Below are positions 7,542 through 52,644 of a stretch of DNA of 64,000 nucleotides, one piece after another. Source of the DNA: a virus; the IMG/VR virus record IMGVR_UViG_3300027973_002292, positions 32,001 through 96,000 of that record; one strand, 5' to 3'. Within the stretch, counting starts at the first letter, position 1, and every line of letters starts with the position of its first letter. The notes below the pieces were generated by a model. That model searched no databases, was not told the origin of the DNA, and saw only the letters and a list, made by a program, of their open reading frames with translations. Position numbers and translations under genes: made by a program.

Positions 7542-10500
7542 ATGTCTACTACAATTACAGCGGGACTTAGAGTTGATACGTCTGCGGCTTACAAAGATAT
7601 TGATCTTTTTAAGTCAAGAATAAATAAAAGCTTCAGTCAACCACTAGGAAGAATTAGTGGTGACGCAGCAGAGTTTTCTAAATCACTGCAAGCAGCCGCT
7701 GCCCGCGTAACAGCATTCGGGGCTACTACTGGAAGCATTTATTTAGTTACTAAAGCTATCTCAGAAACAGCAAGAGCCACAATAGAAGTAAATAAACAGT
7801 TAACAGAACTAAATACTTTCTTAGGAGAGTCTGAGTCTAGTCTTCAGAACTTTAGCAAAACTTTATTTTCAATCGCTAGAAATACAGGCTCAACTTTTTC
7901 TGACGCTACAGAAGCTGCTAAAGAGTTCGCCAGACAAGGCTTGTCAACTGAAGAGACATTAACCAGAACTAACGATGCGCTTGTCTTATCTAGAATTTCT
8001 GGTTTAAATTATGCTCAATCGGTAAACAGTATAACGACTGCTCTTAACGGTTTTAGTAAAGAAGCTTTAACTAGCACAGATATCATAAATAAGCTAATTG
8101 CTGTTGACACAAGATTTGCAGTTAGCTCTAAAGACCTAAGCGAAGCTCTAACCCGCGTAGGAAGTGCTGCTGAAGAAGCCGGCTTGTCTTCTGATCAATT
8201 GGTTGCTACAATTACTACTGCCCAACAAATCACTGGTCGTGGCGGTGCTGTAATCGGTAACGCTTTAAAAACAATCTTTACAAGAGTAAGAAGACCAGAA
8301 ATATTAGATCAGCTTAAGCAAATCGGAGTAGTCGTTACTGATCAAAATGGATCTCTGCTTAATGCTATTGATATTCTTAAGAACTATACGAATGTAACAA
8401 AAAATCTAAGCCAAGCTGAAAAATCAAGAACAGCAGAGCTTCTTGGCGGTGTTTATCAGATTAACCAATTACAATCAGTCATTAGAGACTTGGGAAGCGC
8501 CAACAGTATTTATGCAAGCTCTCTTAAGATTTCTATAGGAGCTACAGATGAGGCTATTAAGAAAAATTCCGAATTAAATAAAAGCTATGCTGCGCTAATT
8601 AATGACACTGCAAATTTAGCAACGCAAGTTGGGTCGGATATAGGTAAAAGCTTGTTTGGGCCAATTATTTCTGGCGGGGCTGGTGTTACAAAAGCAATAT
8701 TAGAATTTCTTTCTCCAGAGAGCATTGCTCCTCAAATTGGTAAAGCTGGGCAAGAAATTGGAAAAAATTTATCTAGAGAAATTGGTAAGGGAGTTCTAGA
8801 CACGCTTGGTAATGCATTGGTTTTCGTTGGAGCGCCAGTTGCGGCTGTAGTTGCTGGGTCTATAGGTAAAAGGCTGCTTTCGTTTTTAGGCGCATCAGTA
8901 AAAACGCAAATAAAAGGCATCACAGATCCATTAGGGAGAGTCGTTACGGGAGGCTCTTTCAGCGGAGATAAAGAAAGAGAGCAATTAAATTTAATAAATC
9001 AAATTTCAGATGTTGTAAAGAAAAATAATTTTATTGGTGAAGCTACCGTTAAGGGAGTCTATAATGAAGGCAAAGCTAGAAGAGAGGTTTTAAAAGAAAT
9101 TTTAGCACAAAATTCTCTACTAGAAAGACAAGCAAATTTAGCCCAAACAATTTTTAATACAATAAGTAAAATAAAGCCCACTGTTACAACTATAGGGCAA
9201 GTAAATTCTTTTGGATTAAATCAAGTTAACCCAAGGAGAAATGCTAAAGGAAGATTTGTTGCTTCTGGATATATTCCAAATTTTTCAATGGGATTAGCAG
9301 AACAAGAAGAGTCTGCTGCAAAAGGGTTCGGAGCCAAAAATCCTAAGGCTCGATTAATCAGAGCTACAATCAAAGGTAAAACTGGCCCAGTAATGATTAA
9401 CGACGAAGAGGATGTGGTTCCTAATTTCGCTGGCACAGGAGAAACAGCAATCATTCCTAGATACAGAAACGTTAAAGACATCCCCAGAATGGCTAAGGGA
9501 TATGTTCCTAATTTTAGTAACGCATCAGGAAGTTTTGGAACTGTTTCTAAGATTAATGAAAGCCAAGTTAGAAAAGAGTTTTTTTCTGGAGCAGGACAAT
9601 CAGGAGCAGGAGAAATAGCTAATGAATTTTTGGCTTCTAGAAAATTATCTGAGCAGATTCAAGCAAGCAGAGAGCTTGGTTATCAGGGCATGCGTGGAGG
9701 ATATATAGGAAAACTTTTTGAGGCTCCTCATACATATGGCACATTAGAAGACTCTATTAGATCTGGATCTATAGTCAAAGGCTTAGCTCCGGGAAAAACC
9801 GCCAAAGATATCGGAGATAATCTAGATAAATATACAGGAGAGTATAAAAATTATTATGAATTAGTAACAAATTTGGGAAGACTATCTGCTAAACAAATCA
9901 ACTCTGGAAAAGCAATGGAGGCCAGAGATTTAGCTAATTTTGGAAATTTAATGCTTAATAAAAAAGCAGAAGATCTTATTACTAAAATAGTTTCCAGAAA
10001 AGGGAGCGATAGACTTGTAGGGAAAATGAATAGTTCTTGGCAATCTACTAGTAGAGTAGCAGAAGGATTAGCTAGACAAGGAGCAAGAATTAGTATAGTT
10101 GATCCAGGTATTTTTGGAGGCTTAGGCGAAAAGAGAAAAAAAGAATTAGCAAAACTTGGCTATCAAGATAATTATCGTGAAATGACTGGGGCAAATGCTG
10201 CTGGTTATATTCCTAATTTTGCTAAAAAAGATAAATATAAATTCCCAAATATTTCTTCTAATAAGATGGAAGCAAATATTGGCAAAAATTTTGAAAAACT
10301 AACCCCTGAGAATCAAAGATATTTCGCAAGAGCTTACGAAGATTACAACAATTTAATTAAAGTTTTTTCTAAGGCTTCTGGAACTTCTCCAGAAAAGTTT
10401 GCTAATGTAATGTCTGCCCTTTCTCCTGCTAACCCATTAGAGAGAAACGCATTAGACGCTTTAAGATATAACTTGTTCTACCAAAAGAAACTCTCAACAG

Positions 10501-13500
10501 CAGCTTCTCCAATTTTCATAGACGAAAGAGAAATAGGGTCGGTAAAGGCTCAAACATATGGAGCAAACAGAACTAAAGCTGCAAATTTACTTGTTGGTTT
10601 AGAAAAGCTTACAGGAAATAAGAGAAAATCGTTCGTAAACAACATGTTAGATCCATTTCAAAGCACGGATGTTACAGTTGACTACAGAGCTCAAGGCGAC
10701 GCATTGAATAAACAATTTAATGTAAAAAATGCCCCTTCTATGAATAGGGAGCAATATGATAAAGTTTCCCAAGCGTTCAGAAACGTTGGATCTAAAGCAG
10801 GCGTTAGTGGTTTGGGGGTTCAAGCAGCGACTTGGATTGGTGGAAGAATGGGTTCTAAAGCTGCAAGAGGACAAGATTTCAATAGAGGAATTTTAAAATT
10901 TTTCTATGATAATCCAGATAAGATTAGTTTAGAGAATCTTGAGTTTTTGCTTTCTGTTCCAGGAAAAGGAAAGGCTAGAAAGGATTTCTTTAAAAACGCT
11001 TCAGCGATGGGTGTTTCTAAATTGGGATCTGATAGTCTTATTTCAATTCCAAGGGTAGGCGGGTATGTTCCTAATTTTGCAGGGTTTAATTTATCTACTA
11101 TAAGATTCTTGACTAAAGCTAGTGCTAAAATGTCTGGTTCAGTTCTTTCGCCTAAAACGTTAATAAAATTTGCTACTGGAAAAGGAAAAGTGGAGGATCT
11201 TGTAAATCCATTCTTAGATTTCTTAAAAAAACCTGCTGATCTTATTAATAGCCCTCAAGATTTAGAGGATGCAAAATCTGTTATAAATCTTATATTTAAA
11301 AATAATCAAGCTAGAGAAATGGCAGCTAGCAGGCTAGCTCCAATTATTAATGAGTCAAGTTTTAGTGTTAAATCTCAAGAAGAAGCGGTTTCTACAGGAA
11401 TACAATACCCCGACGGCGGAAGAGGCTATAGAGACTATAGAGATTTTTTACGTTATAAATTATTGGGCGGCCAAAAAGAATACGAAGAGTATGTAGGCAA
11501 CGAGTATGGCCCAAAAGCTTTAATTAAAAATAAAGATGGAAGTTATAGATTCAATCCGAAATCTACACAAGGACAATTAGAGTTGTCTGATGTTAGACAA
11601 GCAGCTAAAGTTTTATTTTCTACTCCAGAACAAATTGCTGAATCGAGAGCATTAATGGTTGGCAGGGATGTCCAAAAACAGTATAAAGCAAGAAAATTAG
11701 GACCAGAAGATAATGTTCCTGGACCTAACCCATTTTTAGGCTATACATATAAATTAGGAAGATTTATTGGTAACGTAGGAAAGAAAAGAAAAGCTGTAAA
11801 ATACACAGATAGATGGGATGTAGAATTACACCAAGGAGAAAGAGATGTGATGGAGAATTTTTTAAAAAACACATCTGAAATTTCAGATTTAGAGACAAGA
11901 AAACAAGTCGCCAATTATTATATAGATAGAGACTTAAGCGATAGTAGTTACGCTGGAGATATAAATAGTTTAATAGTGAAAGAATTATTATCTTCTATTC
12001 CTGGAGCAAACCCAATACTTTTAAAAGGCGCAGCTAGAGCTCCAAAAGGAGAGAGCATTTTCGCAAAAGGCTATATTCCTAATTTCTCTGGCTTATCTGA
12101 TTCAATAAGCAGAGAGAAATCTATGACTGGTCTTCCGGTTTCTCAAATCATGGCTCATTTTGATAAGAGCGGAAATCCAATAGCAGTAACAAACAAAAAA
12201 GATGAGCCTAATGGTCTCAAAGATGTAGTCCCAAATTTTGCACCGAGAGTAAAGGTTCCAAAAACTCCAAGAGGTAAAAAAGGAACAACTGCGGCTCAAG
12301 TTTCTGATTTATTTAGTTCTTTTTTTGGTGAGTCAATTGGAATAGGGCTTTTTCAATCTTTATCAAGCACATTAGCTGACAGAGAAGTCTTGTCTGAAGA
12401 TGTTAATACAGCAACGCAAATTGGTGCGCCTGCTCTCCTGGCGATTTTGCAGGGCATGAGAGGCTTAAAAGCTTCTAAAGGTCAAAAGCTGGGAGCAAGA
12501 GCTGCAGCGTTAGGCGTACCAGTAGCTTTAGGGGGAGCGCAAGCAGCCATGGGGTTTTATGCTTCCAGATCTGTTGGCGAAGATCTCCAAAGAAGAAAAC
12601 TTGAAAAAGAATCAGACAAAGCAGCAAAAGAGTTTAAAGACTTAACAGAAGGAACTCAAGAACTTGCAGATACTCTGTCCAAATTAAATGAATCTTTTAA
12701 AGACGCCTCATCGTCTCCAGAGCAATTATTTAATTTAAGTAAAAGAGCCTCTGAGTTAACAAAAAACGTAACTAAAAATAATCCTGCACTAGCAGCGGCA
12801 ATTTCTTCAGAGCCTAATGTAGAAAAGAAAATTAATTTAATAGAAGATGCTCGCAGAAAAGCCTCTCAACAACAAGCGGTAAAACAAGAAATCATACAAT
12901 TCGAAGGGTCTAAAACAAAATCTCCAGAAGATTTAATTAATTTATTTTCTAAAGAAATTTCTTTGGCTAATGATAAATTATTGCAATTAAACAGCAAAGA
13001 TTTAGTGCCTGCAAATTTTGATAAAATTCTTTCTGATGCTGATTTAGTGCCTTTAAAAACTTTCTTTGACCTTCAAAAAGAAGAGATAAAAAACAAATTA
13101 ATCCCATCATTTTTAGAGGCTGTAAAATTAGAAATAGAATACAATAAAATAAGTAAAGAAAGCATTAAACAAATAAAAGTTTTAAAAAGCGAAGAGATCA
13201 AAGCTAGCAAAGAGATAGAGGGAAAAAAAGTAAGAAGACAAGCCGGTTTAGAAGCTTTAAAATCGGGAGCTGAAGAGCTGAAGCCTTTTGCCGGTCAATT
13301 CGGGGCTAGAGCAGCTATTTCATTCGAGTCAGATCTTCAAAAAACAAAAGAGTCTATTTCAGCAATTACATCTTTCAGAACTCAAATAAACACAAAGCTA
13401 ATAGACAAAGACTTAAAACTTCCAACTAATGTTACTGATAAATTGCAAGGAATTCAAACTCCTGGGCAAGACGCTGGGGCTGTATTAGCAGAATTATCTA

Positions 13501-16500
13501 AGACTCCTGGTTTAAATGAAAAACAAATAGAAGCTCTAGAAGAATTAATTACTACTAATGAAACCCAATCTAGAGAGCTTAAAAAGATTTCCGACATTTC
13601 AGAAATAAATAAAAATGCTCAGCTTAGGGTTTTAAGTATTCAAGAAAAGTTAACCTATGGCGGCGGCATAAAAACCAGCATAGACTCTAGATCAAGAATC
13701 GATTCTATCAATGCTCCAATAAAGGGCCTTCTAGAAAGCAGACTAGGAGCAACTCTTGGTTCCGAAAGATCTCAAACTTCTGGAATGGTTAATGTAGTTA
13801 AATCTATTAAAGACTTATATCCTGGTCTTATAGAAAATTCTAAAGCTCTTGGGTCTGTAAGAGATAGGTTAACTAATCTTAGAGCTAATGACTTGAGAAA
13901 AGATCTTTTTAGGAACGCTTCTTTATTAGAATCCGCTGGCGGATATGGAGATATTCCTGGAATGCTAAGGGCTAAAGGGCTTGATTCTGAAGGATTGAAA
14001 ACTTTAGCAGCTACTCAAGCCGAAGCGGAGCTATCTGGAGGGAACTCTCCTCAAGAAACTACTAGATACTTAGCGGATGTAATTAAAGCCGCTACTGCTG
14101 ATTTAAATCTAACAATACAAGAAGGCCAACAAATTAAGGCTTTGCAAGAAAAGACTGCTGCTCCAGTAGCAGAAATAAATAAAGAAACTGAAGTCGCTAG
14201 ACAAAAATTTTTAACTTCGCTTACAGATTCTGTAAAAAAAGCTTTTGGAGAAAAAATAGACGTCCAAACTGTAAACATATCTAATGCTAGTGTCAATATA
14301 ACTCCGTCTTCGACATCTCAATCTGGAGAATCTTCTGGCGCAGCCCAAGCTAGGGCTTCCATGGCCACTATGGCATCTGGAGCGTCTGGTCCCAGAAGCA
14401 AAGGGTTTATTCCTTCTTTCTATAACCCCTTAAGAGAGGCGGTCCAAAGAGAAAGCCAATATGTTCCATTTAGTTCAATAAGAATTAACAAGAGCAATAA
14501 ATTAATAAATCAAAATAACCCACTAGGTTTAGGCGTGACTAATACAATTGATGAGCCAAATGGTTTAGCAAGTATTGGTTTAGCTTCAAAGGGATATGTT
14601 CCTAATTTTGCTTCTAAATCTAAAATTTTAGATAAAGTTCTAACAGATAAAAGTTTGTATGGGCCTAAAATATCTAAACAAGCTCAAGGATTGGCTAAGA
14701 AAGGTGAATTATGGGGTCTTGATTACGCAGCTTCTAATCCAAAGAAGGGAGATTACGTTCTATATAAAATAAAACCAGATGGCTCTTTAGGAGAAAGAGG
14801 TATGCCAAATAAAGGCGATACCGTTTTGAGCCACGTTGCAGCAAGCAAGTTCTTAGGAGGAGTAAAAGATCTCCTTCCTATATCTAAATTAGCTGAACCT
14901 CCAAAGAGTCAAGAAGCTTCGTTGGCTGGCGGAACTATTTTACCAACTTCAAGCATAGATAAGATAATCAGAGATGTTAAAAAGAAAGGCGGATCAGCTA
15001 CAGATCTTCAAAAAGCTGTAGAAACATTTGCTAAACAAAATTTATCTACATCTAATTTCTTAATTAAAACTGGAGTAGGCGATTTGTCAATCCAAAGCAA
15101 AGGAGTTTTCGGAATCAATTCAAAGCCACTAGATTCTTCAGCTTATGGAACAATTTTAAATGATTATGGAAGAGGAAAAGGTAAAAGTTCAGATTTCTTT
15201 ATTCAAGAAAAAGCTCAACTTTCTGATCAACATAATGAGTCAAGAGTACATGTAGCTATTGATGGGAAAGGCAACGTTAAACTTGTAAGGAATGGAACTA
15301 TAGACAAATCAACAGGAGGGAACCTTGCTAAAGGGTCTTATAGAAGAGCTGCGGAAAGAGCCGCTTTGCAAGCTGCCGAAGCATTCGTTAAAGCTAATCC
15401 AAAATTGGCAAAAAATCAATTTTTAGGTTTAGATGTAGGAGCGGTCGCAGCTACAGAAGGTAAGAGACTTGGGTTAACAACAAAACCTTTTAGCGAGTTG
15501 GGCCAAAAATTTAATCCAATTGTTTTTGAAATAAACCCAACAAGCAGAAGAGGAAGTCAAGGCGGATCTGGATTCGTTTCCGCTGAAAACCCTTTTTCAA
15601 AAGCAAGCCCATCTGTTTTTAATTCTATTTTATCAAGACTTGGAGTTAAATCAAATAATAAATTAGTCCAATCTAACGTTTTAGAAGCCTTATCTAAGGG
15701 AGTAATGGGAAATGATACATTATTAGGATCTGTAAAAAATAAAATTGCAGATACAAATATTCCATTTCCAAGCTCATTTTTTGGAAAAGTCAAAGGAGCT
15801 TTTTCAAGCAGTTCTTCTAAAGTTAAGTCTTTGTTCCAGAATGCTGGAGCTAAAATTTCAAATCTTGGCAATTCAGTTTTTGGTTCAGTTGGCTCTAAGT
15901 TTTCTGGTGTAACCGACAAAATTGGAGCTGGGTTATCTGGTCTCACTGGAAGAGTTAAAGGAGGCTTAGGGGGCATGGCGGCTGGGTTATCTGGTCTCAC
16001 TGGAAGAGTTAAAGGAGGCTTAGGGGGCATGGCGGCTGGGTTATCTGGTTCCTCTGGAAGAGTTAAAGGAGGTCTTTCTGGAGTTTTGACTGGATTAGGA
16101 TTTTTGGGCAATGTGCAGCAAATAGGGGAAAATAGGGAAGCTGATAGAAATTTAGAGGAGTATCTTTCAAAAGCAGCTGCTACATCCATTATACCCGCTG
16201 CGGCACTTGGTCTTACAGACTTTCTTGCGGGGGGGAAACTTTCGGCTAAGCATGAGGTTATTAAGGGTAAGATAGGTAAGGTAGCATCGAAAGGTTTACA
16301 AGCCGCTTCAGCTTTTAGCACCGCTGCCGAATCAGCAACAGAGTTTAGAGAAGGAAATTTCGGATTAGGGGCAGTAAAAGGAGCCGAAGCGGCAGCTTAT
16401 GCTGCTTCGCTGTTCGAAGGGGTAGGCAAAACGTTACCTAAGGGAAAAGGCCTTTTAGGCTCGCTTGGTAATGTTACTCCAAAAGCTTTATCTCAAGTAG

Positions 16501-17951
16501 GCGGAAAAGCATACGGAATAGGCTCTGCTTTGGGCTTAGGCGCAGAGATAGCTAAAGCTAAGGATAACGCTATAGCTGAAGACTATTCTGACATACTATT
16601 TGGCAAAAAAGAAGAGGATATAGATCCTGAGACTGGAGAAGTGACCAAGGGAAGATCTATACTAGGTGCAGGATTCGATGTTTATGGAACCGCTATGGGT
16701 GCTATAGCTGGCGGACCAGTTGGTCAAGGAGTAGCTGCATTTAAGATAGGCTATAGAGCCGGAAATGTAATAGAAAATCAAGCTGGCCTTGGAGAAAAAC
16801 TCGGCAAAATATATGAAGATAAAATCAATAAAGAAAGAGGTGGAGAAATAGCCATTAGAGAAGCTAGATTAAAAGCAAAGAAAGAGCTCTTTAAAGACGC
16901 AAAAGATCTTGAAATCAGGATAGCTAAAATAGAAGAGCAGGGCAAAAAAGGCGTAGAAGAAGAGAGAATTAAAGGAGCAAAAGGTCTTGCTGAAGTTTAT
17001 AAGGGATCTCAAGCCGATAAAGAGAAAAACGACAAAGAAAAAACAGCCCCTTTGAGAAAAGGAATTATAGAAGGTATTGTAAAAAATCAAGAGGCTAATG
17101 GCTTATTCACCTCAAGAGACAAGGCCAATTACTTGATGAGCCAAGAAGCTATCTATGGAAAATTTAAGCCCGAAGAATTTGCAGACAAGGAACTCTACAA
17201 GTCTTACGAAGCTTATTCTAAAGAAAGAGAAACTACTCAAGCAAGAGAGCAAAAATTTAATTCTGCAGTAATGAATCCAGAAATGGCTGGATCTCAAACC
17301 TATAAAATTGATCAATTTAGAGCCGAATCAGAAAGACAATCTGCTATGTTAGCTTCTGCGCCAAAAGACGCTTTAGAAGAAGCTATGAGAAGGGGAGTCT
17401 CTGTTGAGCAGGTAATAGAAGAGAGAAAAAAGATTAATAAATCTAGAGGCTTTATTCCTAACTTCTCTAACGCTTACAATAGAGAAAAATTAGACATCCT
17501 TAGAAATCCAGATTACTCTGGCTATAGAAACGCTGTTCCTCAGCCATCTAAATACTATAAAAATATAGTAAAAAACAGCGCAGAGATTGAAGTCCCGGCA
17601 GCTGAGGTTTATAACAGAATGGGATATTTTGGAGCAACCCCAAAGAACCCTTCCGAGCAATACGCTATTCTCAATCCAGCTCAGCAATCTAAATTGGGAT
17701 ACGCTTCAGGCGGATTCGTGCCAAACTTTGCTGCTGAACAATTTGCTGGCGCTGTTAGTGACGCTATGCAAAAAGCGCTATCTCCATTAATAGACAAGGT
17801 CGGAACTTCAGTTAGTAACTCTAATGTTATTAATGTAAGCGATCAAAGATCTTATCAAACTGGCTCCGATAGAATTACTGGTATAATGGAATTCTTATAT
17901 TCTCAATTCCCTAAGGAAATGGGAAGACAAATGGGCCCTAAACTAGTATAA
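7542..17951 (+). CDS. Tape measure protein (TP901-type core) with motif-delimited inserted enzyme-like domains, 3469 aa
   Basis: N-terminal TMP core (FARQG...ALVLSRISG...ITTALNGF...INKLIAVD..FAVSSKDLSEAL..VGSAA...GAVIGNALKTIFTR), Ala/Gly-rich hydrophobic segments and coiled coils. It follows the tube and chaperones and contains 11 PNF-type repeats. Confidence 0.9.
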   Translation: MSTTITAGLRVDTSAAYKDIDLFKSRINKSFSQPLGRISGDAAEFSKSLQAAAARVTAFGATTGSIYLVTKAISETARATIEVNKQLTELNTFLGESESSLQNFSKTLFSIARNTGSTFSDATEAAKEFARQGLSTEETLTRTNDALVLSRISGLNYAQSVNSITTALNGFSKEALTSTDIINKLIAVDTRFAVSSKDLSEALTRVGSAAEEAGLSSDQLVATITTAQQITGRGGAVIGNALKTIFTRVRRPEILDQLKQIGVVVTDQNGSLLNAIDILKNYTNVTKNLSQAEKSRTAELLGGVYQINQLQSVIRDLGSANSIYASSLKISIGATDEAIKKNSELNKSYAALINDTANLATQVGSDIGKSLFGPIISGGAGVTKAILEFLSPESIAPQIGKAGQEIGKNLSREIGKGVLDTLGNALVFVGAPVAAVVAGSIGKRLLSFLGASVKTQIKGITDPLGRVVTGGSFSGDKEREQLNLINQISDVVKKNNFIGEATVKGVYNEGKARREVLKEILAQNSLLERQANLAQTIFNTISKIKPTVTTIGQVNSFGLNQVNPRRNAKGRFVASGYIPNFSMGLAEQEESAAKGFGAKNPKARLIRATIKGKTGPVMINDEEDVVPNFAGTGETAIIPRYRNVKDIPRMAKGYVPNFSNASGSFGTVSKINESQVRKEFFSGAGQSGAGEIANEFLASRKLSEQIQASRELGYQGMRGGYIGKLFEAPHTYGTLEDSIRSGSIVKGLAPGKTAKDIGDNLDKYTGEYKNYYELVTNLGRLSAKQINSGKAMEARDLANFGNLMLNKKAEDLITKIVSRKGSDRLVGKMNSSWQSTSRVAEGLARQGARISIVDPGIFGGLGEKRKKELAKLGYQDNYREMTGANAAGYIPNFAKKDKYKFPNISSNKMEANIGKNFEKLTPENQRYFARAYEDYNNLIKVFSKASGTSPEKFANVMSALSPANPLERNALDALRYNLFYQKKLSTAASPIFIDEREIGSVKAQTYGANRTKAANLLVGLEKLTGNKRKSFVNNMLDPFQSTDVTVDYRAQGDALNKQFNVKNAPSMNREQYDKVSQAFRNVGSKAGVSGLGVQAATWIGGRMGSKAARGQDFNRGILKFFYDNPDKISLENLEFLLSVPGKGKARKDFFKNASAMGVSKLGSDSLISIPRVGGYVPNFAGFNLSTIRFLTKASAKMSGSVLSPKTLIKFATGKGKVEDLVNPFLDFLKKPADLINSPQDLEDAKSVINLIFKNNQAREMAASRLAPIINESSFSVKSQEEAVSTGIQYPDGGRGYRDYRDFLRYKLLGGQKEYEEYVGNEYGPKALIKNKDGSYRFNPKSTQGQLELSDVRQAAKVLFSTPEQIAESRALMVGRDVQKQYKARKLGPEDNVPGPNPFLGYTYKLGRFIGNVGKKRKAVKYTDRWDVELHQGERDVMENFLKNTSEISDLETRKQVANYYIDRDLSDSSYAGDINSLIVKELLSSIPGANPILLKGAARAPKGESIFAKGYIPNFSGLSDSISREKSMTGLPVSQIMAHFDKSGNPIAVTNKKDEPNGLKDVVPNFAPRVKVPKTPRGKKGTTAAQVSDLFSSFFGESIGIGLFQSLSSTLADREVLSEDVNTATQIGAPALLAILQGMRGLKASKGQKLGARAAALGVPVALGGAQAAMGFYASRSVGEDLQRRKLEKESDKAAKEFKDLTEGTQELADTLSKLNESFKDASSSPEQLFNLSKRASELTKNVTKNNPALAAAISSEPNVEKKINLIEDARRKASQQQAVKQEIIQFEGSKTKSPEDLINLFSKEISLANDKLLQLNSKDLVPANFDKILSDADLVPLKTFFDLQKEEIKNKLIPSFLEAVKLEIEYNKISKESIKQIKVLKSEEIKASKEIEGKKVRRQAGLEALKSGAEELKPFAGQFGARAAISFESDLQKTKESISAITSFRTQINTKLIDKDLKLPTNVTDKLQGIQTPGQDAGAVLAELSKTPGLNEKQIEALEELITTNETQSRELKKISDISEINKNAQLRVLSIQEKLTYGGGIKTSIDSRSRIDSINAPIKGLLESRLGATLGSERSQTSGMVNVVKSIKDLYPGLIENSKALGSVRDRLTNLRANDLRKDLFRNASLLESAGGYGDIPGMLRAKGLDSEGLKTLAATQAEAELSGGNSPQETTRYLADVIKAATADLNLTIQEGQQIKALQEKTAAPVAEINKETEVARQKFLTSLTDSVKKAFGEKIDVQTVNISNASVNITPSSTSQSGESSGAAQARASMATMASGASGPRSKGFIPSFYNPLREAVQRESQYVPFSSIRINKSNKLINQNNPLGLGVTNTIDEPNGLASIGLASKGYVPNFASKSKILDKVLTDKSLYGPKISKQAQGLAKKGELWGLDYAASNPKKGDYVLYKIKPDGSLGERGMPNKGDTVLSHVAASKFLGGVKDLLPISKLAEPPKSQEASLAGGTILPTSSIDKIIRDVKKKGGSATDLQKAVETFAKQNLSTSNFLIKTGVGDLSIQSKGVFGINSKPLDSSAYGTILNDYGRGKGKSSDFFIQEKAQLSDQHNESRVHVAIDGKGNVKLVRNGTIDKSTGGNLAKGSYRRAAERAALQAAEAFVKANPKLAKNQFLGLDVGAVAATEGKRLGLTTKPFSELGQKFNPIVFEINPTSRRGSQGGSGFVSAENPFSKASPSVFNSILSRLGVKSNNKLVQSNVLEALSKGVMGNDTLLGSVKNKIADTNIPFPSSFFGKVKGAFSSSSSKVKSLFQNAGAKISNLGNSVFGSVGSKFSGVTDKIGAGLSGLTGRVKGGLGGMAAGLSGLTGRVKGGLGGMAAGLSGSSGRVKGGLSGVLTGLGFLGNVQQIGENREADRNLEEYLSKAAATSIIPAAALGLTDFLAGGKLSAKHEVIKGKIGKVASKGLQAASAFSTAAESATEFREGNFGLGAVKGAEAAAYAASLFEGVGKTLPKGKGLLGSLGNVTPKALSQVGGKAYGIGSALGLGAEIAKAKDNAIAEDYSDILFGKKEEDIDPETGEVTKGRSILGAGFDVYGTAMGAIAGGPVGQGVAAFKIGYRAGNVIENQAGLGEKLGKIYEDKINKERGGEIAIREARLKAKKELFKDAKDLEIRIAKIEEQGKKGVEEERIKGAKGLAEVYKGSQADKEKNDKEKTAPLRKGIIEGIVKNQEANGLFTSRDKANYLMSQEAIYGKFKPEEFADKELYKSYEAYSKERETTQAREQKFNSAVMNPEMAGSQTYKIDQFRAESERQSAMLASAPKDALEEAMRRGVSVEQVIEERKKINKSRGFIPNFSNAYNREKLDILRNPDYSGYRNAVPQPSKYYKNIVKNSAEIEVPAAEVYNRMGYFGATPKNPSEQYAILNPAQQSKLGYASGGFVPNFAAEQFAGAVSDAMQKALSPLIDKVGTSVSNSNVINVSDQRSYQTGSDRITGIMEFLYSQFPKEMGRQMGPKLV
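9261..17729 (+). repeat. Dispersed peptide repeat xxG[YF][IV]P[NS]F (9 full copies plus 2 DVVPNF copies) in the TMP
   Basis: Copies start at 9261, 9411 (DVVPNF), 9492, 10197, 11055, 12063, 12222 (DVVPNF), 14397, 14586, 17442 and 17706. Synonymous codons differ, so conservation is at the protein level. Confidence 0.9.
15927..16073 (+). repeat. 54-bp tandem repeat (18 aa, AGLSGLTGRVKGGLGGMA): two identical copies plus a partial diverged third
   Basis: GCTGGGTTATCTGGTCTCACTGGAAGAGTTAAAGGAGGCTTAGGGGGCATGGCG at 15927 and 15981, with a partial copy from 16035. Confidence 0.95.
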
Positions 17952-31800: not shown

Positions 31801-32096
31801 ATTTTGTTAAATTAATACCTAAAGTATCTGCAGATACAGTAATGTATTCAGATCACTATACTCAGATGGAGTATTATCTTAGAGCAATGTGTAATGGATT
31901 TGTGAACAACAGCACAGAGATAGCTCCTCAAGAAATTCAAAAAATAATTTCAGAAAATGAAACAGGTATTGATTATGTTGGGGGTTATGACTCTGCGGTT
32001 GGGGATTATTTATTTGAAGACCTCATGAGAAAATCTTATGATATTTCGACTAGTAATTACATACCAATACCGCCAAGTTCTAGTACGAAACAATAA
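28869..32096 (+). CDS. Large hypothetical virion protein, 1075 aa
   Basis: Long ORF in the structural operon, Trp/Cys-containing. N-terminal QHNALAEAFNSRI segment; no confident family. Confidence 0.6.
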   Translation: MVKISKASKVAKDSKTLHTQHNALAEAFNSRILSGLGDCAWRIFYYAFSTFRGVRNPDGDAYPAQDEWFKFYAYLEPKAMIGKFGWPEAPAGEAQGANVANPFMAWIFGNNTRVKKIDGTSDNTKDRIHGLWSEPIRLGGLEAQPPRPGVTEGPIYRASGHSRLSQVWFDSEIQRGCCAYIPNYIYTLPNGQRAQKVVQLLSLGIAGAARRHLKYVMETVSMGRYAPSYVPDVRGKGGIFRKKNAVKDQIDQAMFYYLSFFRGTEDQRADHNKISPNVADNGFNFETFFSRQFLLAPNYSEPKYELDQSGKIKKDQFGNGIVKYDSIGYPELFPQSPSFYWSVPVTNAIDNTFVPCSSSVDQKFKQLDSYSFTSSSGPFFDTNPPNSFNKFCLASLFIQTSDIASTTDSGSSALLRGLSIDVYLNEKFYVGIPIGSESIYPVNKRTGAVNNRITGVVNQYQIYQFNKIYYFEYPVKGKVSFKVRSTTDNGVLNVGKKIVDGSTFTLNNFSIFLKFAHVFEMKPTVADAYTLMRVTTTEEQGADAGQMDPVGHFNGESCKTVFANYYKFGVGYTLRQNASLFQNEAYVSANPVYESARKFISSNVKMADRVTLVDYEVDAGGKSVLYFLRFAYGMKNSGVDIFRGLGPSITPVGNRNIRGSKTEVFIPIVKGKKYIVLDSSSARDGYVLYRIDEARVEKYRHSETFIGGDYYYISKHSNDTVGLYEIEGITSSNLINKTPKIKIKPDDKNLQYSNGNVSNEWTMFMSYNLYHWSNSSAWKPAMYGDIMGALNGRCLTASDTLEYNRGTSKNVKKHLANVTWKPYDIPLVVEAPTGYNYIEGANTDLSKSGSSDPNYALSFASSCPVYKSPYYLESAVRVNPFDPNCEVIKVTLNTRLTPSKVNGATAQFKGKVSENLADFVNKANAFEFRTDESAVIDYVLHTISNRSCPRGIPGDVSLDNRQFWTKQRPFGCCYPRFYFVKLIPKVSADTVMYSDHYTQMEYYLRAMCNGFVNNSTEIAPQEIQKIISENETGIDYVGGYDSAVGDYLFEDLMRKSYDISTSNYIPIPPSSSTKQ

Positions 32097-32097
32097 T

Positions 32098-35000
32098 ATG
32101 AGCGCATTAACCGAAAATAAACAATTCCTTAGCGGAGTTTTGGCTGGTGAAACTTTAGATTTTGACAAGGATGTTTTCGGGCTTTGGGTTAGTGTTTTTG
32201 AAAATGTTAATCACAGTGTTAATGGGTATTCATATCCTAAGCCAATAGTACAAGATTTTACAGCGTTAGACTACGCGGTAGTAAATAAAAAATTATCAAC
32301 ATTCAATTACGATGGTGAATATTCTGATGTAAAGTTTTTTATCACTTCTGGAAAAAAAGGATTTGAAGATTTTACAGAAATTGTTTCTGATATAACTGAC
32401 ACATTTGTTACTGGCTACAAGCCTTTAGTAATTATGCCAGATATGGATTTTGTTGGCAAAGTCTATAGAAAATACGAAATCACAGGATTAGTAAAGTCTT
32501 TGTATGGTAATGGTCAAATTCTAACCGTCTCTGGAGAAGACTGGACGGCAACCAATATATCAGTTCAAGCTAACGGGACCGATTTGGAATACGGTTACTA
32601 CGATCAACAATATTCGGGATACTCAAATGAGGTAACGGCTAGATACAAGTTTCTTTACGACAATCCAAATAATTCTATTGAACAAAATATTTCCACATTT
32701 GAGATGCCAACTCAAGTTGAAAATGGAGCAGATATAAGATACAGAATATCAAGGAAAAGCGATCCGCTTGGATCTTATTTTTCTCCTATCACAACTGCAG
32801 ATGGTAAAATAACAATAGATTATTCTATATATAAAGATGAAGTATCTGGATTTGCGGATTCTTTGGTTAACTATAATTTTAAGCAAACAGCAAAATTTGT
32901 ATTTCCTCAAAGAGTATTTCAAAACTTAGAGCAAGGTCAGTCTGTTATTAGACCAATAAACGATTCTTCAATAACTGGCGTTCAGTTGTCTAGAATAGTT
33001 GATAAGAATGATTTAGATTATTTTAGTTTTAAACTATTAACAACTGGAAATTATTCTGAAATATACAAAGTATCTTTTAATTTAGATAGATTTTCTTCTA
33101 TAGTGAAGCAAGATGTTCAAGGCTATGTTTTAACTGGAATTCAAATAGAAGACGGATCACCAAAAACAGTTATTGATATAGCAATAAATTCAGGAGTTTA
33201 CCCGAGAGTAATTCAATCTACAAAATATAATTCTGATGAGCTGTTAAATCTAGTAAATTCAGATGAGCTAATATACAATGAGGAAAAGGCTCAAGAAAAC
33301 GCTGCTAATATTGATTATGGTGATGAAGATAAGTTTGCGCTTAATTTAAGGCAAGACGTAGAAAATAGACAAAAAATTATAAATAGCCTTCTTACAGATG
33401 ATCCTTTGGCTGGGCTAGAAGACTCAACAGACACTACCATCTCAAGAAGAACCGTAGACGATTTGGAGATAGAAGACTTAAACTCTGAAAATGAAAACAT
33501 TATATTACAGAAATTTATTCTGCCCATTTTCCCTTTACCAAAGGAAGCCGTTGATAAGGATTATTTTTCTAATTATATAAACTCTGGAGAAGAGTATGTA
33601 GCTAACCCATTGGTTTCTTATAATTTAAATACTAATTATCTTTTCTATGGAAATCAATATGGTCAATTAGGATACTACATAGAAGAAACTGAGAACGGAA
33701 CAACAAGAACAGTAATAAATTCAACTTGCAATGGTGTATTTATAAAAGAAACGGGAGTTTGCATTGGAGATTCTGCTACTTTCGCTAACATGCCGTATGT
33801 TGATGAGGTTTATCTTTTAAATGGCCAAGCTACAAATATTCCTAGTAACGGAATAATATCAAAACAAAACTTTATTGATAATGATACTTGGTCTTCTGCT
33901 ATTAATTATTATTATAATAAAAATTATTTATTGTCATGCGCTATCTTCCCGACAGATTCTGAAGAAGGGCGGCAGACTGCTTTAAAGAACGCTTTAAGCA
34001 CAGCTTTGGGAAGAGTTGGCGTTGGGATGGGAGAGTTCGCTGTGGCCGGCAAAGATGAAGACGCTTTAATTTATGTCGAGAGAGAAATTTACGTTGAAAG
34101 TTACGACTCCGATCAGATCGGTTTATTTAATAATGTTATCAATCCGATAGTTGGGGTAACTGGAGATTTTGAATTACAAACAGAGGGCAAAGAAAAACTT
34201 TACGCGGTTCAAACTTTTGATACCAGTTTTGCGGCAAGCAGTAAGATGTCTAGGTATTTCTTTAATGCAAAAGATTATCAAGAGAATGTTGTTTTTAATT
34301 CTTTTTATCCTTGCAAAGATAATGCTGGAAATCAAATATTAAGTTACGCAACTGGAGAAAATTATGGGACAGTTTATTCTAAAGACATCTCTTTAGATCA
34401 GTCTCAAATCTATAGGTTAGAGTATGTAACTGGAGACGCTTTTACTTATCAAAAACTCTCCTCATACTCCGCTTGGAATGGATTAAATAATGCAAGCATT
34501 ACTATAACTAATCAAGATGAAAAAAACTATGGCTACCATTTGTATGGATATAATTCTGCGACTGATGAGCTTACGTTTACAAAAGCAAATGTGAAAAGCG
34601 CCGACACGGCAAGCGTTGGTCAAACGAATGCCGTAGTTTTAAAATTTAATAAAAAAGGATTTGGTCAAAAAACTTACGTTAAACAAGACAACGTTAATGC
34701 TTTCCGAGCGATAGATAGCACCGTAGTTAATTCTAGCTTTGAAATGGTAGATCAAGCTAAAGTCTTTTTTAATTTACAAAAATACGATTACGAAGCAAAA
34801 ATTACGACAAGCGATGACAATGAATCTATTCCTTGGTATACAAATAAACAAAATCCAATAAATGACGATAACTATGGTCAAGACGATGCTTTTGGATTAG
34901 TTATACCTAGATTTTTTCAAGACTCTTCAGAAGAAGCTAAGGCTTTAGCGGAGAGTTTAATGTTTTTTCCTAATGGCCCTTCTACTTCAAAAAATTACGA

Positions 35001-38000
35001 AGGGGTGCCAATTGATTCTAGTAGTATTAATTCTTTTGCAGATGGAGCTTTGAATAATACTTTAAAAATAAAAGAAGCTAACTCTTCTTTTGTATTGGAG
35101 AATGACTTTGTTTTAAACTTTACTAATAGTGGAAAGCTTACTAAAGAAGAAGGCTTAAAAGACGTAAAAGATTTCTCTTTATCCAGAAGACTTAAGATAA
35201 CAAAAATAAAATACAATTTTTATGTTAAGGATTTGATTTTAATTGGTGACGCTGGCTTCCCTTACTCTATTGAATTAAATACCGGATGGGAATATAAATT
35301 ACAATACAGATTAAAGAACGGCGAATGGAAAGAAATGGAAACAGTTTCTGAATTAGGAAATAAAAAAATTCAAGCTATCTCATCATTTTTAGATCCATAT
35401 TTTTATAAATTAGAAGACTTATCTACCCCAAATTATTTGTCGATGGTTGGGTTTGTTTCTAACATCAGCAGATTTTTGGACGATAACGATTACGAGTTTA
35501 GAATATTCAAATACCAGAAGCTCATATCTCCATCCGAATCTATCGACATTTATCGCAAAACAAATTTCTTGCCGATTCAAGTTAATTTAACATGGGATAG
35601 TCAATCTCAATACTACAACATATATCAAGTAGATTACGATGGCAATTCTAAATTAATAGGAACTGAAATAAATAGCAAAACTACAAGTTATGTTATTCCA
35701 AGCGTAAAGCAAGAAGCTTTCAATAAGGGATTAAAAAATTATCCAGTAAATGGAGTTGGTTATTATAATATTATCGCTTCTGGAGCCTTGCCTCTCACAA
35801 ACGAAGCGTTAGTTAACGTTTCGGATGTTTTTAATGGGTCTAAAATTGGAAACGAAGATGGCGGTCAGCTTCAAGTTAGTGTTATACAAAATGTAAATTC
35901 CAGCTCAGGATTCAATCCTGTATCTAATGTTACATATTCTCCATTAATAAATTTCAATAATCCAGAAGCTAAGATTGCAGATTTTAGCATCAACTCGAAT
36001 TACAATGGATATTATTTTGTATCAGATAGTAAGAATGCTACAATAACTAATGCTTTTAATAATCTAGAGTTTTACGTGGCAAATACTGGAGTTTCTCAAT
36101 GTGTTTTAACTGATACAAATTCTACTACAACAAATATTCCGTCTAATAATGTAGCTATCGTAGCTGATTATCCAACTAAATCAGTTTCGGCTTTATCTGC
36201 TTTACCGGTTAGTCAGGCCGATTTGCTATCTGGAGAAATTTTATATCTAACTGCTGGAGCTAGTATAAATGCAAGCGACTTCTCTGGTTCTAGCAGCGTG
36301 TCTTTCTCGGCTACTATAATTAATAACTCTAGTTCTTCTATATCAATACAGTATGGGGCGGCAAGCATTTCTATACCAGCCAATAAAACAAATAAACTAA
36401 ATTTTAATAACGGATGGAATGGCTCAACTTACTCTCCAACCATAACATTATCGATACCTTATGACAATGTTCAAACTCAAGCTTCTTACATATCTAGTAA
36501 TGATAGTCTTGTTAATTTGAATTACGAATTGCTTGAGTTGCAAGCGAAAAATTATTCAAATCTTCCAGTTTATAATCTTTCTAACGATAAGTTGTCTGTT
36601 AACGGAGACATAGATTTAGATGGCGATTCTTTTTACTTCGTTAATTGGAACGGCGGAGAGGCTTCTCCTACCGCTCCGACAGCCACAAAGAAAAAATACT
36701 TTGATTATATAAAAATATTTATCAAAGGGGCAGAGACCGAATCTGACAGTCTTTTCGTTTTAAAAGACGATACAGAAATTAATATTTCTAATTTTAGACC
36801 GACCTCCACCACAGCTCAAGATAAAATTTATTTTTTTATTAAAGACAACTCTGTAGAGAGAGCTTTAAATATTAAAATTATCAATGGCGCTGACGAGATC
36901 GTTTTGCCAAGAGGCTCGCAAGATTTTAAATTAACGATTAAGAAAACAAGTCTTGATGGTATTAATTATTCAATTCTTTATCCATCTAATGATTTCTCTA
37001 CTGTAATTACAGACACAAGAGAGCAGATGATCGTCATCAAAACTAATAATACTATTATAGATATTGGTTATATTGAATCAGCTTTGAAGTCTAATGCTTT
37101 TGTTTATTTTGTTAATAAATCTCTTAGCCAAGTTTCGTTTAAAAAGAATTTCGAAAATAAAGACGTTTTCACTTTAGGGGTTGGAAAAGTAGCAAAAGCT
37201 GTGTTACAAAAAGGCAGCGGAAGAGCTCTGATTTCAGAAATAATAAATCCATTAAATCATTTTAGTTTTGCTATAAACCCTGCTACTCATCTAGCTGATC
37301 TATCTGGTATAAATATATTAAATCTTAAATTTTGCGGAACAGAAATCTCTATTCCATCTGTTAGTTCTTTTGTTGGCGAAAACACCTTCTTGCTTTGCAA
37401 GAATAGATTTTTGCAAAATCGAATAGATCAAGTTTCTGTTGCTGGATATGATTTGATTAATGAAAATTTAATAAAAGATAACTCTAGAGTTCTTAGACTA
37501 TATAAGAATAATAACACAGATAAAGTTCCAACTATAGACAGGCTAGAAGTAGACAACACGAATCAAACAAAATTCTTTAAAGAATCGTCTTCTTCATCTA
37601 ACTTATACACTGATAACGACTTGGTAAAGCATGAATTTAATGTGTTTTATATTAAAGACGCAGATTTAGAAGATTTTACGATTTCAGATTTTTACTCAAG
37701 AGAAGATAAGAGATACAGTGGCAAAATATTAACTAGCACTCCTAGAAAATTAACAGTGCATTCTTTTGATGAGATATATCCAAAAAGAACGCTGCCTAAA
37801 AGCATGAGTTTCAATTTTGATTTTGATGCAGGGGACACTCCAGATGGATCGTTGTCGATTAAAGCGCTTCAAATGACTGAAAAGGCAGACTCTATTGTTA
37901 TCAACTCTATTTCAGAAGATAATGGATTAAAAAAACTATCAGAGCTAGAAGCTTCGCATTTGTGCGTAAATTTCGCTTATAGCTCAATATTGGTGCAAAC

Positions 38001-49037: not shown

Positions 49038-50177
49038 GAAATAAAATCCATCAGCTTCTTCTCGAAAAGAATCGTCTAGCTGCTCTGGCAAACTAAAGTC
49101 TGTATTTCTGATATCTTTTGAAGCTATATCGTGTTTTAAATGCCATCTACTTGCGTAAGTTTTACCAGATTTAATTATTATTTTATTTGTTTTGTAGTAG
49201 ACTTTAGACTTATCTAGACCGTCTAGAAAACTCAAGTTCAGCAAATTAAGTCTATTGATTTTTTTATAATGAAGATATTTGATTTTTTCTTGGCTCAAGT
49301 CTTCAGAGCTGAGATTAGTAATCAAATCATAATTAATATTTAAACTGTCTAAAGTAGCCAAAAATGAAGAGTCAGAATCTTTTTCGACCTTAAAAAAGAG
49401 TTTTTTTATTCTCTTCTTCATTGATAGAAGGATGTCTTTATTGATAGATCTATTGGTAACAATAGAGCAAGAAGAGTTCTTTAGTTGGCCATATAAATTT
49501 TCTTCAGAGAAAAACTTATCCATTCTAACTATTATCTCGTTATTGATTTGGGTCTGAGGTATTTTAAAATTGCAATCAGGAATAAGATCTATTGAAGGGA
49601 TAGCAAATACTTTACCAATACAAATAGTGTTATCAAAATTAAATTCTGAGCCGGGAAACATTCTCTTCAATATAAACGCCGCCACTTCTTCTGGCCTAAT
49701 ATTATTGATATAGTTTCCTAATGGATTTAAGAAACCTTTTCTTGGTTTTTCAGAATGAATGATTTGATCTTCTGAAGCTAGGCAATTATCTATAGAGTAA
49801 TCGTATTTTAATAGACACTGATCTACTCCATACTCGGAGCAAATTAAAGAATAAAGCTTTGAGCTTCCGCAAAAAAATTTAGCTCGTTTTAATAAATAAG
49901 TTTTTTCATTTAAAGATACTGTTTTGTCTATTACAATATGATCGAATTGGAATTTTTTATCTTCTATGAATTGAATTATTTTGATATTTTTCGCCTCCAT
50001 AAATGGAGTTATCAATTGAATAGTTCTATTCCAAAAAACATAATTAGAATTTTCATCTTCATTCTGAGTGTTTAGAATAATATAATCTGAAAAGCCAAGC
50101 GGAAAAAACTTGTCGTAGATGTACGCTTTTTCAGGAGTTATGCCTGTTGTAGCTGAGAAGGATTTTAATAAATTCAT
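49017..50177 (-). CDS. Degenerate GT9-like C-terminal domain plus unknown domain
   Basis: YIILNT...NYVFWNRTIQLI...SLNEKTYLLKRAKFFCGSS...NNIRPEEV follows the pattern of the second domain of heptosyltransferase-like GT9 enzymes. Confidence 0.5.
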   Translation of the reverse strand: MNLLKSFSATTGITPEKAYIYDKFFPLGFSDYIILNTQNEDENSNYVFWNRTIQLITPFMEAKNIKIIQFIEDKKFQFDHIVIDKTVSLNEKTYLLKRAKFFCGSSKLYSLICSEYGVDQCLLKYDYSIDNCLASEDQIIHSEKPRKGFLNPLGNYINNIRPEEVAAFILKRMFPGSEFNFDNTICIGKVFAIPSIDLIPDCNFKIPQTQINNEIIVRMDKFFSEENLYGQLKNSSCSIVTNRSINKDILLSMKKRIKKLFFKVEKDSDSSFLATLDSLNINYDLITNLSSEDLSQEKIKYLHYKKINRLNLLNLSFLDGLDKSKVYYKTNKIIIKSGKTYASRWHLKHDIASKDIRNTDFSLPEQLDDSFREEADGFYFLTKERF

Positions 50178-52615: not shown

Positions 52616-52644
52616 ATGATTGACTCTTTACTCTTGATTGTCAA
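52616..52644 (-). promoter_or_regulatory. Sigma70-type promoter, leaderless spacing
   Basis: TTGACA-N17-AATCAT-N7-ATG(52608); the -10 box is imperfect. Confidence 0.55.

Follow-up and report, generated by a model that had tools for sequence, protein, structure and literature searches.

Can the tape measure protein (TMP) of a phage tail carry a kinase domain, and what would such a domain do there? This question is raised by a viral sequence from IMG/VR (record IMGVR_UViG_3300027973_002292; 127,648 bp, G+C 34.6%), of which positions 32,001 to 96,000 were analyzed; "the window" refers to this whole stretch of 64,000 nucleotides. It holds a giant TMP gene, and 227 codons without a stop at 9516-10196 on the + strand, amino acids (aa) 659-885 of the TMP, occupy precisely one slot, bordered on either side by a recurring motif, G[YFL][IV]PNF. 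The original prediction, made from the sequence alone, had read these residues as a protein-kinase-like domain. We found that aa 659-885 has a protein-kinase-like fold, and the fold itself can be regarded as settled. We give an even chance to the further reading that the domain is a minimal kinase-like phosphotransferase, built as a swappable cassette of the TMP and delivered to phosphorylate a host target.

The kinase-like fold

The domain and its elements are listed here, with segment residues numbered 1-227 (protein position is segment position plus 658).

9516..10196, + strand: minimal protein-kinase-like domain, aa 659-885, identified by family hidden Markov model (HMM), AlphaFold2 (AF2) model, fold matches and PDB profile matches
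9525..9545, + strand: Gly-rich loop SGSFGTV, aa 662-668 (segment 4-10), strands 1-2 of the model
9573..9575, + strand: Lys678 (K20) of VRK, equivalent of the strand-3 "VAIK" lysine, in 18/18 copies; model strand E17-22
9624..9626, + strand: Glu695 (E37) of EIANEF, equivalent of the helix-C glutamate, in 18/18 copies; model helix H31-53
9927..9947, + strand: catalytic-loop equivalent DLANFGN, Asp796-Asn802 (D138-N144), with D and N in 18/18 copies
9960..10076, + strand: insert of three helices (H149-160, H164-173 and H175-187 in the model), aa 807-845, lying between the equivalents of strands 7 and 8
10101..10103, + strand: Asp854 (D196) of IVDPG, equivalent of the DFG Asp, in 18/18 copies; directly after strand E192-194

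Translation of 9516-10196 recovered all the kinase motifs named in the original prediction, in the order given there: SGSFGTV, VRK, EIANEF, APHTYG (segment 70-75), ARDLANFGNLML and IVDPG. The catalytic-loop stretch ARDLANFGNLML holds D138 and N144 with the spacing D-x5-N and is, as had been noted, one residue longer than D-x4-N. The Gly-rich loop had been placed directly behind a junction motif and IVDPG just ahead of the next one, and both placements were correct, since SGSFGTV begins 4 aa after the upstream GYVPNF and D196 lies 34 aa before GYIPNF (aa 888-893). Read with its preceding residue, the loop is ASGSFG, in which the first Gly of GxGxxG is Ala and the second and third are kept. The HMM envelope of the domain covers aa 658-873, and the final ~12 aa of the segment are linker.

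Searches with the 227-aa segment as a single sequence were blank. Pfam returned only BNYVV_TGB3 (E 0.068), PHROGs and NCBIfam returned 0 families each, phmmer against the PDB gave 3 matches at E>=0.18 with no kinase among them, and neither tblastn nor megablast matched any of 50,697 phage records. A pattern scan of IMG/VR yielded 43 pattern matches with 0 confirmed, and the ESM Atlas returned unnamed clusters only, at a recognition of 1414, which is below evidence level. These blanks, with a best PDB phmmer E of 0.18, favor an explanation by chance, in which scattered motifs in a low-complexity TMP linker resemble a kinase without having the fold. That explanation was refuted computationally by the family score, the invariant residues and the in-register kinase profile matches described below, and by two independent AF2 models that match kinase folds only. 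We consider it highly improbable.

A phmmer search with the segment against 1.84 billion representatives gave 8 matches at E<=1e-3, seven of which were kept. The other (P0009, 1051 aa, E 1.3e-4) was a 29-residue match in an unrelated repeat protein and was dropped from the counts. One of the seven (P0003) is an ortholog, 90% identical over the kinase-like segment, and the remaining six hold a module that is 25-31% identical; five of these are giant TMPs, as judged by homology of their N-terminal cores, and one is a 385-aa protein (P0005). Four further giant TMPs were obtained by a region search with one relative. An HMM scan of the 13 proteins of the family located 18 copies of the module, mostly in giant TMPs and never more than three per protein. 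When an HMM was built from the 15 copies outside the window clade, the window segment scored 96.1 bits (E 1.3e-28), compared to at most 6.1 bits for 1000 shuffles of it. Therefore, the segment truly belongs to a family of conserved domains.

The five kinase residues, Lys, Glu, Asp, Asn and Asp (K20, E37, D138, N144 and D196), were invariant in all 18 copies of the HMM alignment. Other positions varied. A complete GxGxxG is found in 14/18 copies, with Ala or Thr at the first Gly in the window clade, and G5 and G8 are invariant in an alignment of 8 sequences (A1). The catalytic residues are spaced as D-x4-N in 11/18 copies and as D-x6-N in 4, and D-x5-N is confined to the 3 copies of the window clade. 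The catalytic loop reads D-L-H-x-G-N in 11/18 copies, and the His after the catalytic Asp is present in 14/18 and absent from the window copy. Across the copies, the helix-C Glu lies in I-x-x-E-[FY] and the DFG equivalent reads [IV]-D-[PA]-G (DPG or DAG).

Judging from the sequence collections searched, this module family is rare. With profile A1, a search limited to proteins of 399-2000 aa returned a single protein, P0011 (97% identical, on a contig of 3650 bp), and with a profile of 12 sequences (A2), a search of 104-398 aa returned just P0016, on a contig of 2472 bp. These two are probably fragments, so free-standing kinase-module genes are without support; none was found in either size range. 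P0005 is also likely a fragment, with a start that by eye resembles an internal part of P0006. Pattern scans with an alignment of 3 sequences (A3) gave 204 matches in genome_contigs and 174 in viral_contigs, with 0 confirmed in either, but these used two short patterns and are weak evidence of absence. A second and different kinase-like stretch (LGKGSS...DDLHSKN...ILDYGF) was seen by eye at about aa 1530-1730 of P0012, beside three copies of the module; it had no Pfam match.

Profile comparison with PDB sequences pointed to kinases. A1 gave 35 matches at E<=10, of which 30 were protein kinases, including all of the top 23. The best match was the CDPK 3lij (E 1.3e-4), and the alignment was in register, with the Gly loop on GSGAYGEV and Asp...Asn on HRDLKPEN; the Lys of A1 was aligned with the AIK lysine of 3lij and 3dxn. 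A2 gave 88 matches at E<=1 (best E 2.7e-3), and most among the 60 listed were kinases.

The fold was then examined with AF2 models. The model of the window segment (pLDDT 80.3, pTM 0.78) consists of three strands with the Gly loop and, in strand 3, K20, followed by a long helix with E37, two strands and a hinge. After the hinge, two helices lead to the D138-N144 loop, which is followed by a short strand, then by three helices and by one more strand before D196; the catalytic-loop equivalent sits between helix H109-130 and strand E145-147. A model of the relative P0007 module, made with 12 sequences, had a pLDDT of 88.5 and the same three-helix insert.

Structure prediction and Foldseek of aa 659-885 had been proposed as the check on the original prediction. 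The kinase fold was seen in AF2 and in VIA, a fold search independent of Foldseek that was run against 48,161 chains, but Foldseek gave no match for the window model at E<=1e-3. Its best-ranking entries were Bud32, OspG (4bvu_A, rank 2), Ark1, MSMEG_1954, Rv3197 and PRPK. In VIA, all 50 of the matches listed had the kinase fold, with BRAF best at Z 8.8 (135 aligned, root-mean-square deviation 4.0) and 198 chains at Z>=5; a second look gave MSMEG_1954 at Z 9.6, BRAF at 9.1 and PRPK at 8.1. With the P0007 module, Foldseek gave 11 matches at E<=1e-3, of which TNNI3K (9.8e-5, probability 1.00), CRAF, MEK1 and Abl held the top ranks. VIA matched this module to Rv3197 (Z 10.9), BRAF (10.0), Rio1 (9.9), Ark1 (9.1), OspG (8.8) and NleH1 (8.5), with 61 chains at Z>=8 and, again, the kinase fold in all 50 matches listed. 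The BRAF alignments of both models stop at chain residue 600, which is 6 residues past the DFG-like Asp; in BRAF, the DFG Asp is residue 594. A fold search of BFVD gave no match at E<=1e-3; its best match (E 1.8e-3) was a Ser/Thr kinase of Bacillus phage 268TH004, and most of the named entries were viral kinases. Since VIA Z scores below about 8 can reflect a common arrangement, the case for the fold rests on the unanimity of the kinase matches and their agreement with the sequence profile, not on the Z score.

Taken by its parts, the segment belongs to the protein-kinase-like fold superfamily. After a five-strand N-lobe with helix C come a hinge, the helical core of the C-lobe, the catalytic loop and a strand-loop of the metal-binding type. 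Present too are the GxGxxG element (full in 14/18 copies), the strand-3 Lys, the helix-C Glu, the catalytic Asp and Asn and the DFG-type Asp. A probable convergence of the five catalytic residues on one site is supported by their placement on canonical elements of the models and by the BRAF alignment ranges. The earlier claim of a protein-kinase-like fold was thus upheld by profile, AF2 and VIA, with the catalytic residues in canonical order and on canonical secondary-structure elements.

A truncated core and its possible substrate

The domain ends right after the DFG-like Asp, and the models end after one short helix. In 16 of the 18 copies, this Asp lies 8-40 aa before the next junction motif. 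This closeness leaves no space for what follows DFG in eukaryotic-type kinases, namely an activation segment and then a subdomain of helices alpha-F to alpha-I, and both are absent. What is kept is the N-lobe, with its Gly loop, Lys678 and helix-C Glu695, and the catalytic core of the C-lobe, with Asp796...Asn802 and Asp854. Canonical kinases have ~13 residues from the catalytic Asn to the DFG Asp. The corresponding distance here is 52 residues, ~39 of them in three helices, which probably pack where the C-terminal subdomain would sit and probably supply the core of the C-lobe. Neither the missing subdomain nor the helical insert had been noticed in the original prediction. The domain is among the smallest kinase cores with all catalytic residues, its C-lobe being replaced by an internal three-helix insert, and it bears on how little fold catalysis needs.

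This anatomy raises the possibility that the module is an active enzyme of the same fold with a non-protein substrate, such as a small molecule, a signalling nucleotide, the end of an RNA or DNA strand, or a host precursor of envelope or lipid. The D-L-H-x-G-N loop of 11/18 copies is of the type seen in ABC1/UbiB and APH/choline kinases. MSMEG_1954 and Rv3197 (Z 9.6 and 10.9) are top structure matches, along with ADCK3, APH(2'') and the RNA kinase Ark1 (Z 7.4 and 9.1), and the substrate-binding C-lobe of protein kinases is absent. On the other hand, the helical substrate subdomain of APH-type enzymes is absent too, and the kinases matched by the sequence profile are eukaryotic-type Ser/Thr and Tyr protein kinases only. 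Foldseek on the better model puts TNNI3K, CRAF, MEK1 and Abl first, and the matches to OspG and NleH1, minimal effector kinases whose action is on or with proteins, are just as good (Z 8.8 and 8.5). We consider a non-protein substrate unlikely. A protein substrate is preferred because the profile matches eukaryotic-type protein kinases and because the kinase of phage T7 provides a precedent.

Junction motifs and exchangeable cassettes

The protein that hosts the kinase-like domain and the features around the slot are as follows.

7542..17951, + strand: giant TMP ORF, 3469 aa, a single open frame, hosting the kinase-like domain
7542..9269, + strand: N-terminal tape measure core, aa 1-576, common to 10/10 other full-length giant TMPs examined (E <=1e-160)
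9498..9515, + strand: upstream junction motif GYVPNF, aa 653-658, one of 11 in-frame copies
10203..10220, + strand: downstream junction motif GYIPNF, aa 888-893; identity with the TMP of locus L002 resumes at aa 886
10248..10838, + strand: next cassette, DUF7178, aa 903-1099 (PF23802, E 2.6e-19; also phrog_3842)

The ORF encodes a TP901-type TMP, a very long protein within a tail gene block and with a PF10145/TIGR01760 core near its N-terminus. PhageMin_Tail (PF10145) was matched at aa 113-301 (E 1.4e-28, Pfam) and tape_meas_TP901 (TIGR01760) at aa 68-371 (E 6.1e-34, NCBIfam), and 13 PHROGs labelled tail length tape measure protein were matched as well. By tblastn, the N-terminal part is 25-28% identical to annotated TMPs of Bacillus siphophages. 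The N-terminal core is also found in four IMG/VR loci (L002-L005). With this core and the junction motifs, the location of the domain inside a TMP and between two copies of a recurring motif, as first proposed, was borne out.

The motif is concentrated in the TMP. The pattern [YFLVM][IV]PN[FY] has 10 in-frame copies in the TMP ORF, and the rest of the 64 kb, read in all six frames, contains 2. Once P[NS]F is admitted, the count in the ORF rises to 11 copies of the form G/D-[YFV]-[IV]-P-[NS]-F, starting at nucleotides 9270, 9414, 9501, 10206, 11064, 12072, 12225, 14406, 14595, 17451 and 17715. Eleven giant TMPs together hold 81 copies with the consensus A/S-x-G-[FLY]-[IV]-P-N-F-A. In all 18 copies of the kinase-like module, the Gly loop starts 5-14 aa after the preceding junction motif. 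As read from these sequences, the PNF-type motifs mark module junctions, and they may serve as cleavage sites, docking sites or recombination joints.

Comparison with other TMPs showed that the content of the slot can change. To avoid the bias of finding relatives through the kinase, the loci L002-L005 were fetched by means of the N-terminal core. The window TMP and that of L002 are collinear, with 66.6% identity over aa 1-659 and 86% over aa 886-1183, and the first block of identity stops one residue past GYVPNF. In place of the kinase, L002 carries an unrelated 162-aa module (8870-9364, aa 654-815, P0020) with a DIGGGKYD stretch; its only lead in Pfam was Methyltransf_12 (E 0.082), and it had no PDB sequence match. 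The adjoining DUF7178 cassette is 86% identical in the two TMPs while the kinase slot differs. The kinase module was found in none of the four TMPs fetched by the core, within the parts covered (two of the ORFs are cut by the contig end). In addition, the ortholog P0003 is without window aa 1180-1510, and the sequence after that module directly follows the preceding motif. Because of the swap in L002, the absence from the four core-fetched relatives and the module loss in P0003, the kinase-like domain is interpreted as accessory, exchangeable cargo.

Other modules between the same motifs were recorded in relatives. P0006, which has two kinase modules, also carries ART-PolyVal (PF18760, a precomputed Pfam entry), and P0014 carries two GNAT-like modules. 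ART-PolyVal is absent from the window's own record. By eye, modules containing HExxH were seen in P0010, P0012, P0013 and P0015. DUF7178 had also been suspected by eye in P0004, P0006 and P0012, and jackhmmer found it in P0003 only. The module that P0003 lacks (11079-12071, aa 1180-1510) has 331 aa and no family match, and its flanking motifs are fused into one in P0003. The fragment P0011 (97% identical) contains this module, part of which (aa ~204-268) recurs twice in P0006. A ~50-aa element occurs twice in the window TMP (12087-12224, aa 1516-1561; 14421-14594, aa 2294-2351) with the pattern ...RE...G.P.SQI......NP.GL.V.N..DEP.GL...; it is found once in 9-10 related TMPs and twice in P0003, and it is the only conserved piece besides the N-terminal core and the kinase.

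These comparisons also bear on a role in tail assembly, where the module would be a nucleotide-binding module, an ATPase or a pseudokinase for folding, chaperone docking or TMP exit, and might be trimmed before maturation. Bud32/PRPK and RIO, the closest minimal kinases, match at Z 7.4-9.9 and work mainly in assemblies, as ATPases or switches. In the window copy, the Gly loop is degenerate and the loop His is missing, and a folded domain cannot pass the tail lumen. However, the module appears dispensable for this TMP type, being in none of the four related IMG/VR TMPs over the parts covered, two of which are cut by the contig end, and the other module in the L002 slot fits accessory cargo rather than a structural part. 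The five catalytic residues are kept in 18/18 copies, and relatives have 2-3 tandem copies beside effector-type ART and GNAT domains. For these reasons, we doubt that the module is an assembly factor and prefer to see it as delivered cargo.

The genes around the TMP gave few further clues, as the structural genes of the window have almost no Pfam or PHROG matches. Nine ORFs downstream of the TMP and three upstream were scanned with Pfam, and none had a match. A second giant ORF in the tail block (32038-41826, + strand, 3262 aa) has neither a Pfam match nor the PNF motif. The minus strand carries a replication block of DnaE-type polymerase, PHP, PD-(D/E)XK nuclease, primase, DnaB and RecA genes. 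Within it, at 52628-56587, the DnaE-type polymerase (NTPase, finger and HhH; 855 aa) and the PHP protein (255 aa) are separate genes with a 212-aa ORF between them, followed by the PD-(D/E)XK nuclease, primase, DnaB and RecA. Adjoining these genes (50174-52039, - strand) is a 621-aa protein with Glycos_transf_1 (E 1.2e-8) and DUF4214 (E 1.7e-5). The closest phage DnaE matches are ~30% identical and come from unrelated hosts, so no host could be inferred from DnaE.

Possible delivery and comparison with known systems

TMPs fill the tail lumen and exit ahead of the DNA. If the kinase-like cassette follows this route, it would leave the tail with the TMP before the DNA, carried in extended form or processed at the junction motifs. 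It would then reach the host cytoplasm, refold and bind ATP-Mg, with Asp854 of DPG binding the metal, and phosphorylate a host target, likeliest a protein, for takeover of the cell or blunting of its defence. Catalysis, delivery, substrate and benefit to the phage are all steps that we infer. The original prediction of a virion-delivered kinase that acts at infection, possibly against host defence, is plausible, given the cassette architecture and the ART-PolyVal and GNAT domains of relatives.

Several observations weigh against a delivered, active kinase. Neither the segment nor any of 8 scanned members of the family was matched by Pkinase (PF00069/PF07714) at E<=1, and no other Pfam kinase model identified them; the nearest was ABC1 (PF03109, the ABC1/UbiB family), at E 0.092 in 1/8 members and with none for the window copy. 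The best Foldseek match of the window model was at E 6.6e-3 (Bud32), with TM-scores <=0.39, and its VIA scores of Z 8.8-9.6 are in the middling range of that scale. The window copy is also the least canonical of the family, having lost the first Gly, lacking the loop His and having one extra residue in the loop. With these departures from the family in the Gly loop, the His and the loop length, it could be a weaker or inactive copy, judged by its residues. The absence of the C-lobe means that there is no usual substrate site to point to, and the DLHxGN loop together with the high-ranking ABC1-type and APH structures points to small-molecule or atypical kinases. As for delivery, a folded 25-kDa domain would not fit the lumen of a siphophage tail, and the presence of this part of the TMP in the virion is presumed.

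A broader and more tentative reading is that the G[YFL][IV]PNF motifs outline an undescribed platform for effector delivery. In a clade of large phages, the TMP would be a string of exchangeable cassettes, among them the kinase, ART, GNAT, DUF7178, the methyltransferase-like module and others. These would be threaded through the tail before the DNA and set free at the motifs, cut by a protease or through self-cleavage that depends on Asn. Loss of the C-lobe might let the kinase unfold and refold fast, and it could act within seconds, so that a host defence or takeover target would be phosphorylated before phage gene expression. We regard this as possible but speculative, and as less probable than the main reading.

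The interest of such a route is that pre-made enzymes entering with the DNA act before the host responds. Capsid-borne examples are T4 Alt, the N4 virion RNA polymerase and the P1 Dar proteins. A kinase in a TMP, if true, would mean that effectors acting in the cytoplasm can also be delivered through the tail lumen, and the motif-bounded cassette swap would offer an easy way to look for more cargo in giant TMPs. A full-text search of open-access papers and bioRxiv found no paper on a kinase domain inside a TMP, and none on such motif strings in a TMP context apart from one unrelated proteomics match.

Among known phage systems, the protein kinase gp0.7 of phage T7 phosphorylates host proteins early in infection and is a functional analogy. 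It is free-standing and expressed from the incoming genome, in contrast to a domain that is part of a virion protein. The TMPs of mycobacteriophage TM4 and of T5 (pb2) have embedded enzyme motifs that act during genome entry. Those modules act on peptidoglycan outside the cytoplasm, whereas a kinase needs ATP and hence the cytoplasm.

Cellular kinases of reduced size provide structural parallels. Bud32/PRPK and RIO, housekeeping ATPases and kinases of KEOPS and ribosome assembly, have a similarly small fold with a truncated C-lobe (Z 7.4-8.1 with the window model, 8.6-9.9 with the P0007 model). They differ in keeping helices after DFG, and there was no Pfam match of RIO1 or Bud32 type for the segment or 8 members. 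The ABC1/UbiB-type proteins MSMEG_1954, Rv3197 and ADCK3 gave the best VIA scores (Z 9.6 with the window model and 10.9 with the P0007 model) but have 390-400 residues, with extra helical parts at both the N- and C-terminus. OspG of Shigella and NleH1 of E. coli are alike in having 160-170 residues and a kinase fold that lacks the substrate-binding C-lobe, and they reach the target cell through a narrow conduit, that of type III secretion. OspG (4q5h_A) matched the P0007 model at Z 8.8 (133/169 aligned) and NleH1 (4lrj_A) at Z 8.5 (127/160). They have no detectable sequence relation to the TMP module, are bacterial proteins acting in eukaryotic cells, and are free-standing and without the three-helix insert before the DFG strand.

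The closest parallel is with the polyvalent proteins of phages and plasmids, which are described as containing monophyletic kinases that have lost the C-terminal subdomain (Iyer, Burroughs, Anand, de Souza and Aravind 2017; PMC5512222). According to that paper, these kinases have an insert between the conserved His and Asp of phosphotransfer and are predicted to be injected and to modify host proteins, by analogy with the T7 kinase. On that description, the TMP domain is alike in its core of the Ser/Thr/Tyr-kinase superfamily with intact ATP-binding and phosphotransfer residues, in the loss of the whole C-terminal subdomain, and in its occurrence in very large, multi-domain, virion-associated proteins with ART and GNAT domains, and in a predicted role as an injected effector. 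No Pfam model for the polyvalent kinases matched the segment or the 8 members scanned. The ~39-aa insert of the TMP family may correspond to the insert between His and Asp, although the comparison is one of descriptions, and the His is present in 14/18 copies and not in the window copy. For the polyvalent kinases, the last N-lobe strand is described there (PMC5512222) as carrying a Gln, and a Glu is reported ahead of strand 2. The TMP family instead has an invariant Lys (K88) in its last N-lobe strand, (R)IGKEV, with an adjoining Gln in 1/18 copies, and the Glu of "DLEK" is found in some copies only. Tape measure proteins have 0 mentions in PMC5512222, and the PNF junction motif is not described in it. 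By that description, the TMP domain is a C-lobe-less kinase-like domain resembling those of the polyvalent proteins, and what is new is its carrier, a tape measure protein, and the junction motif that bounds it.

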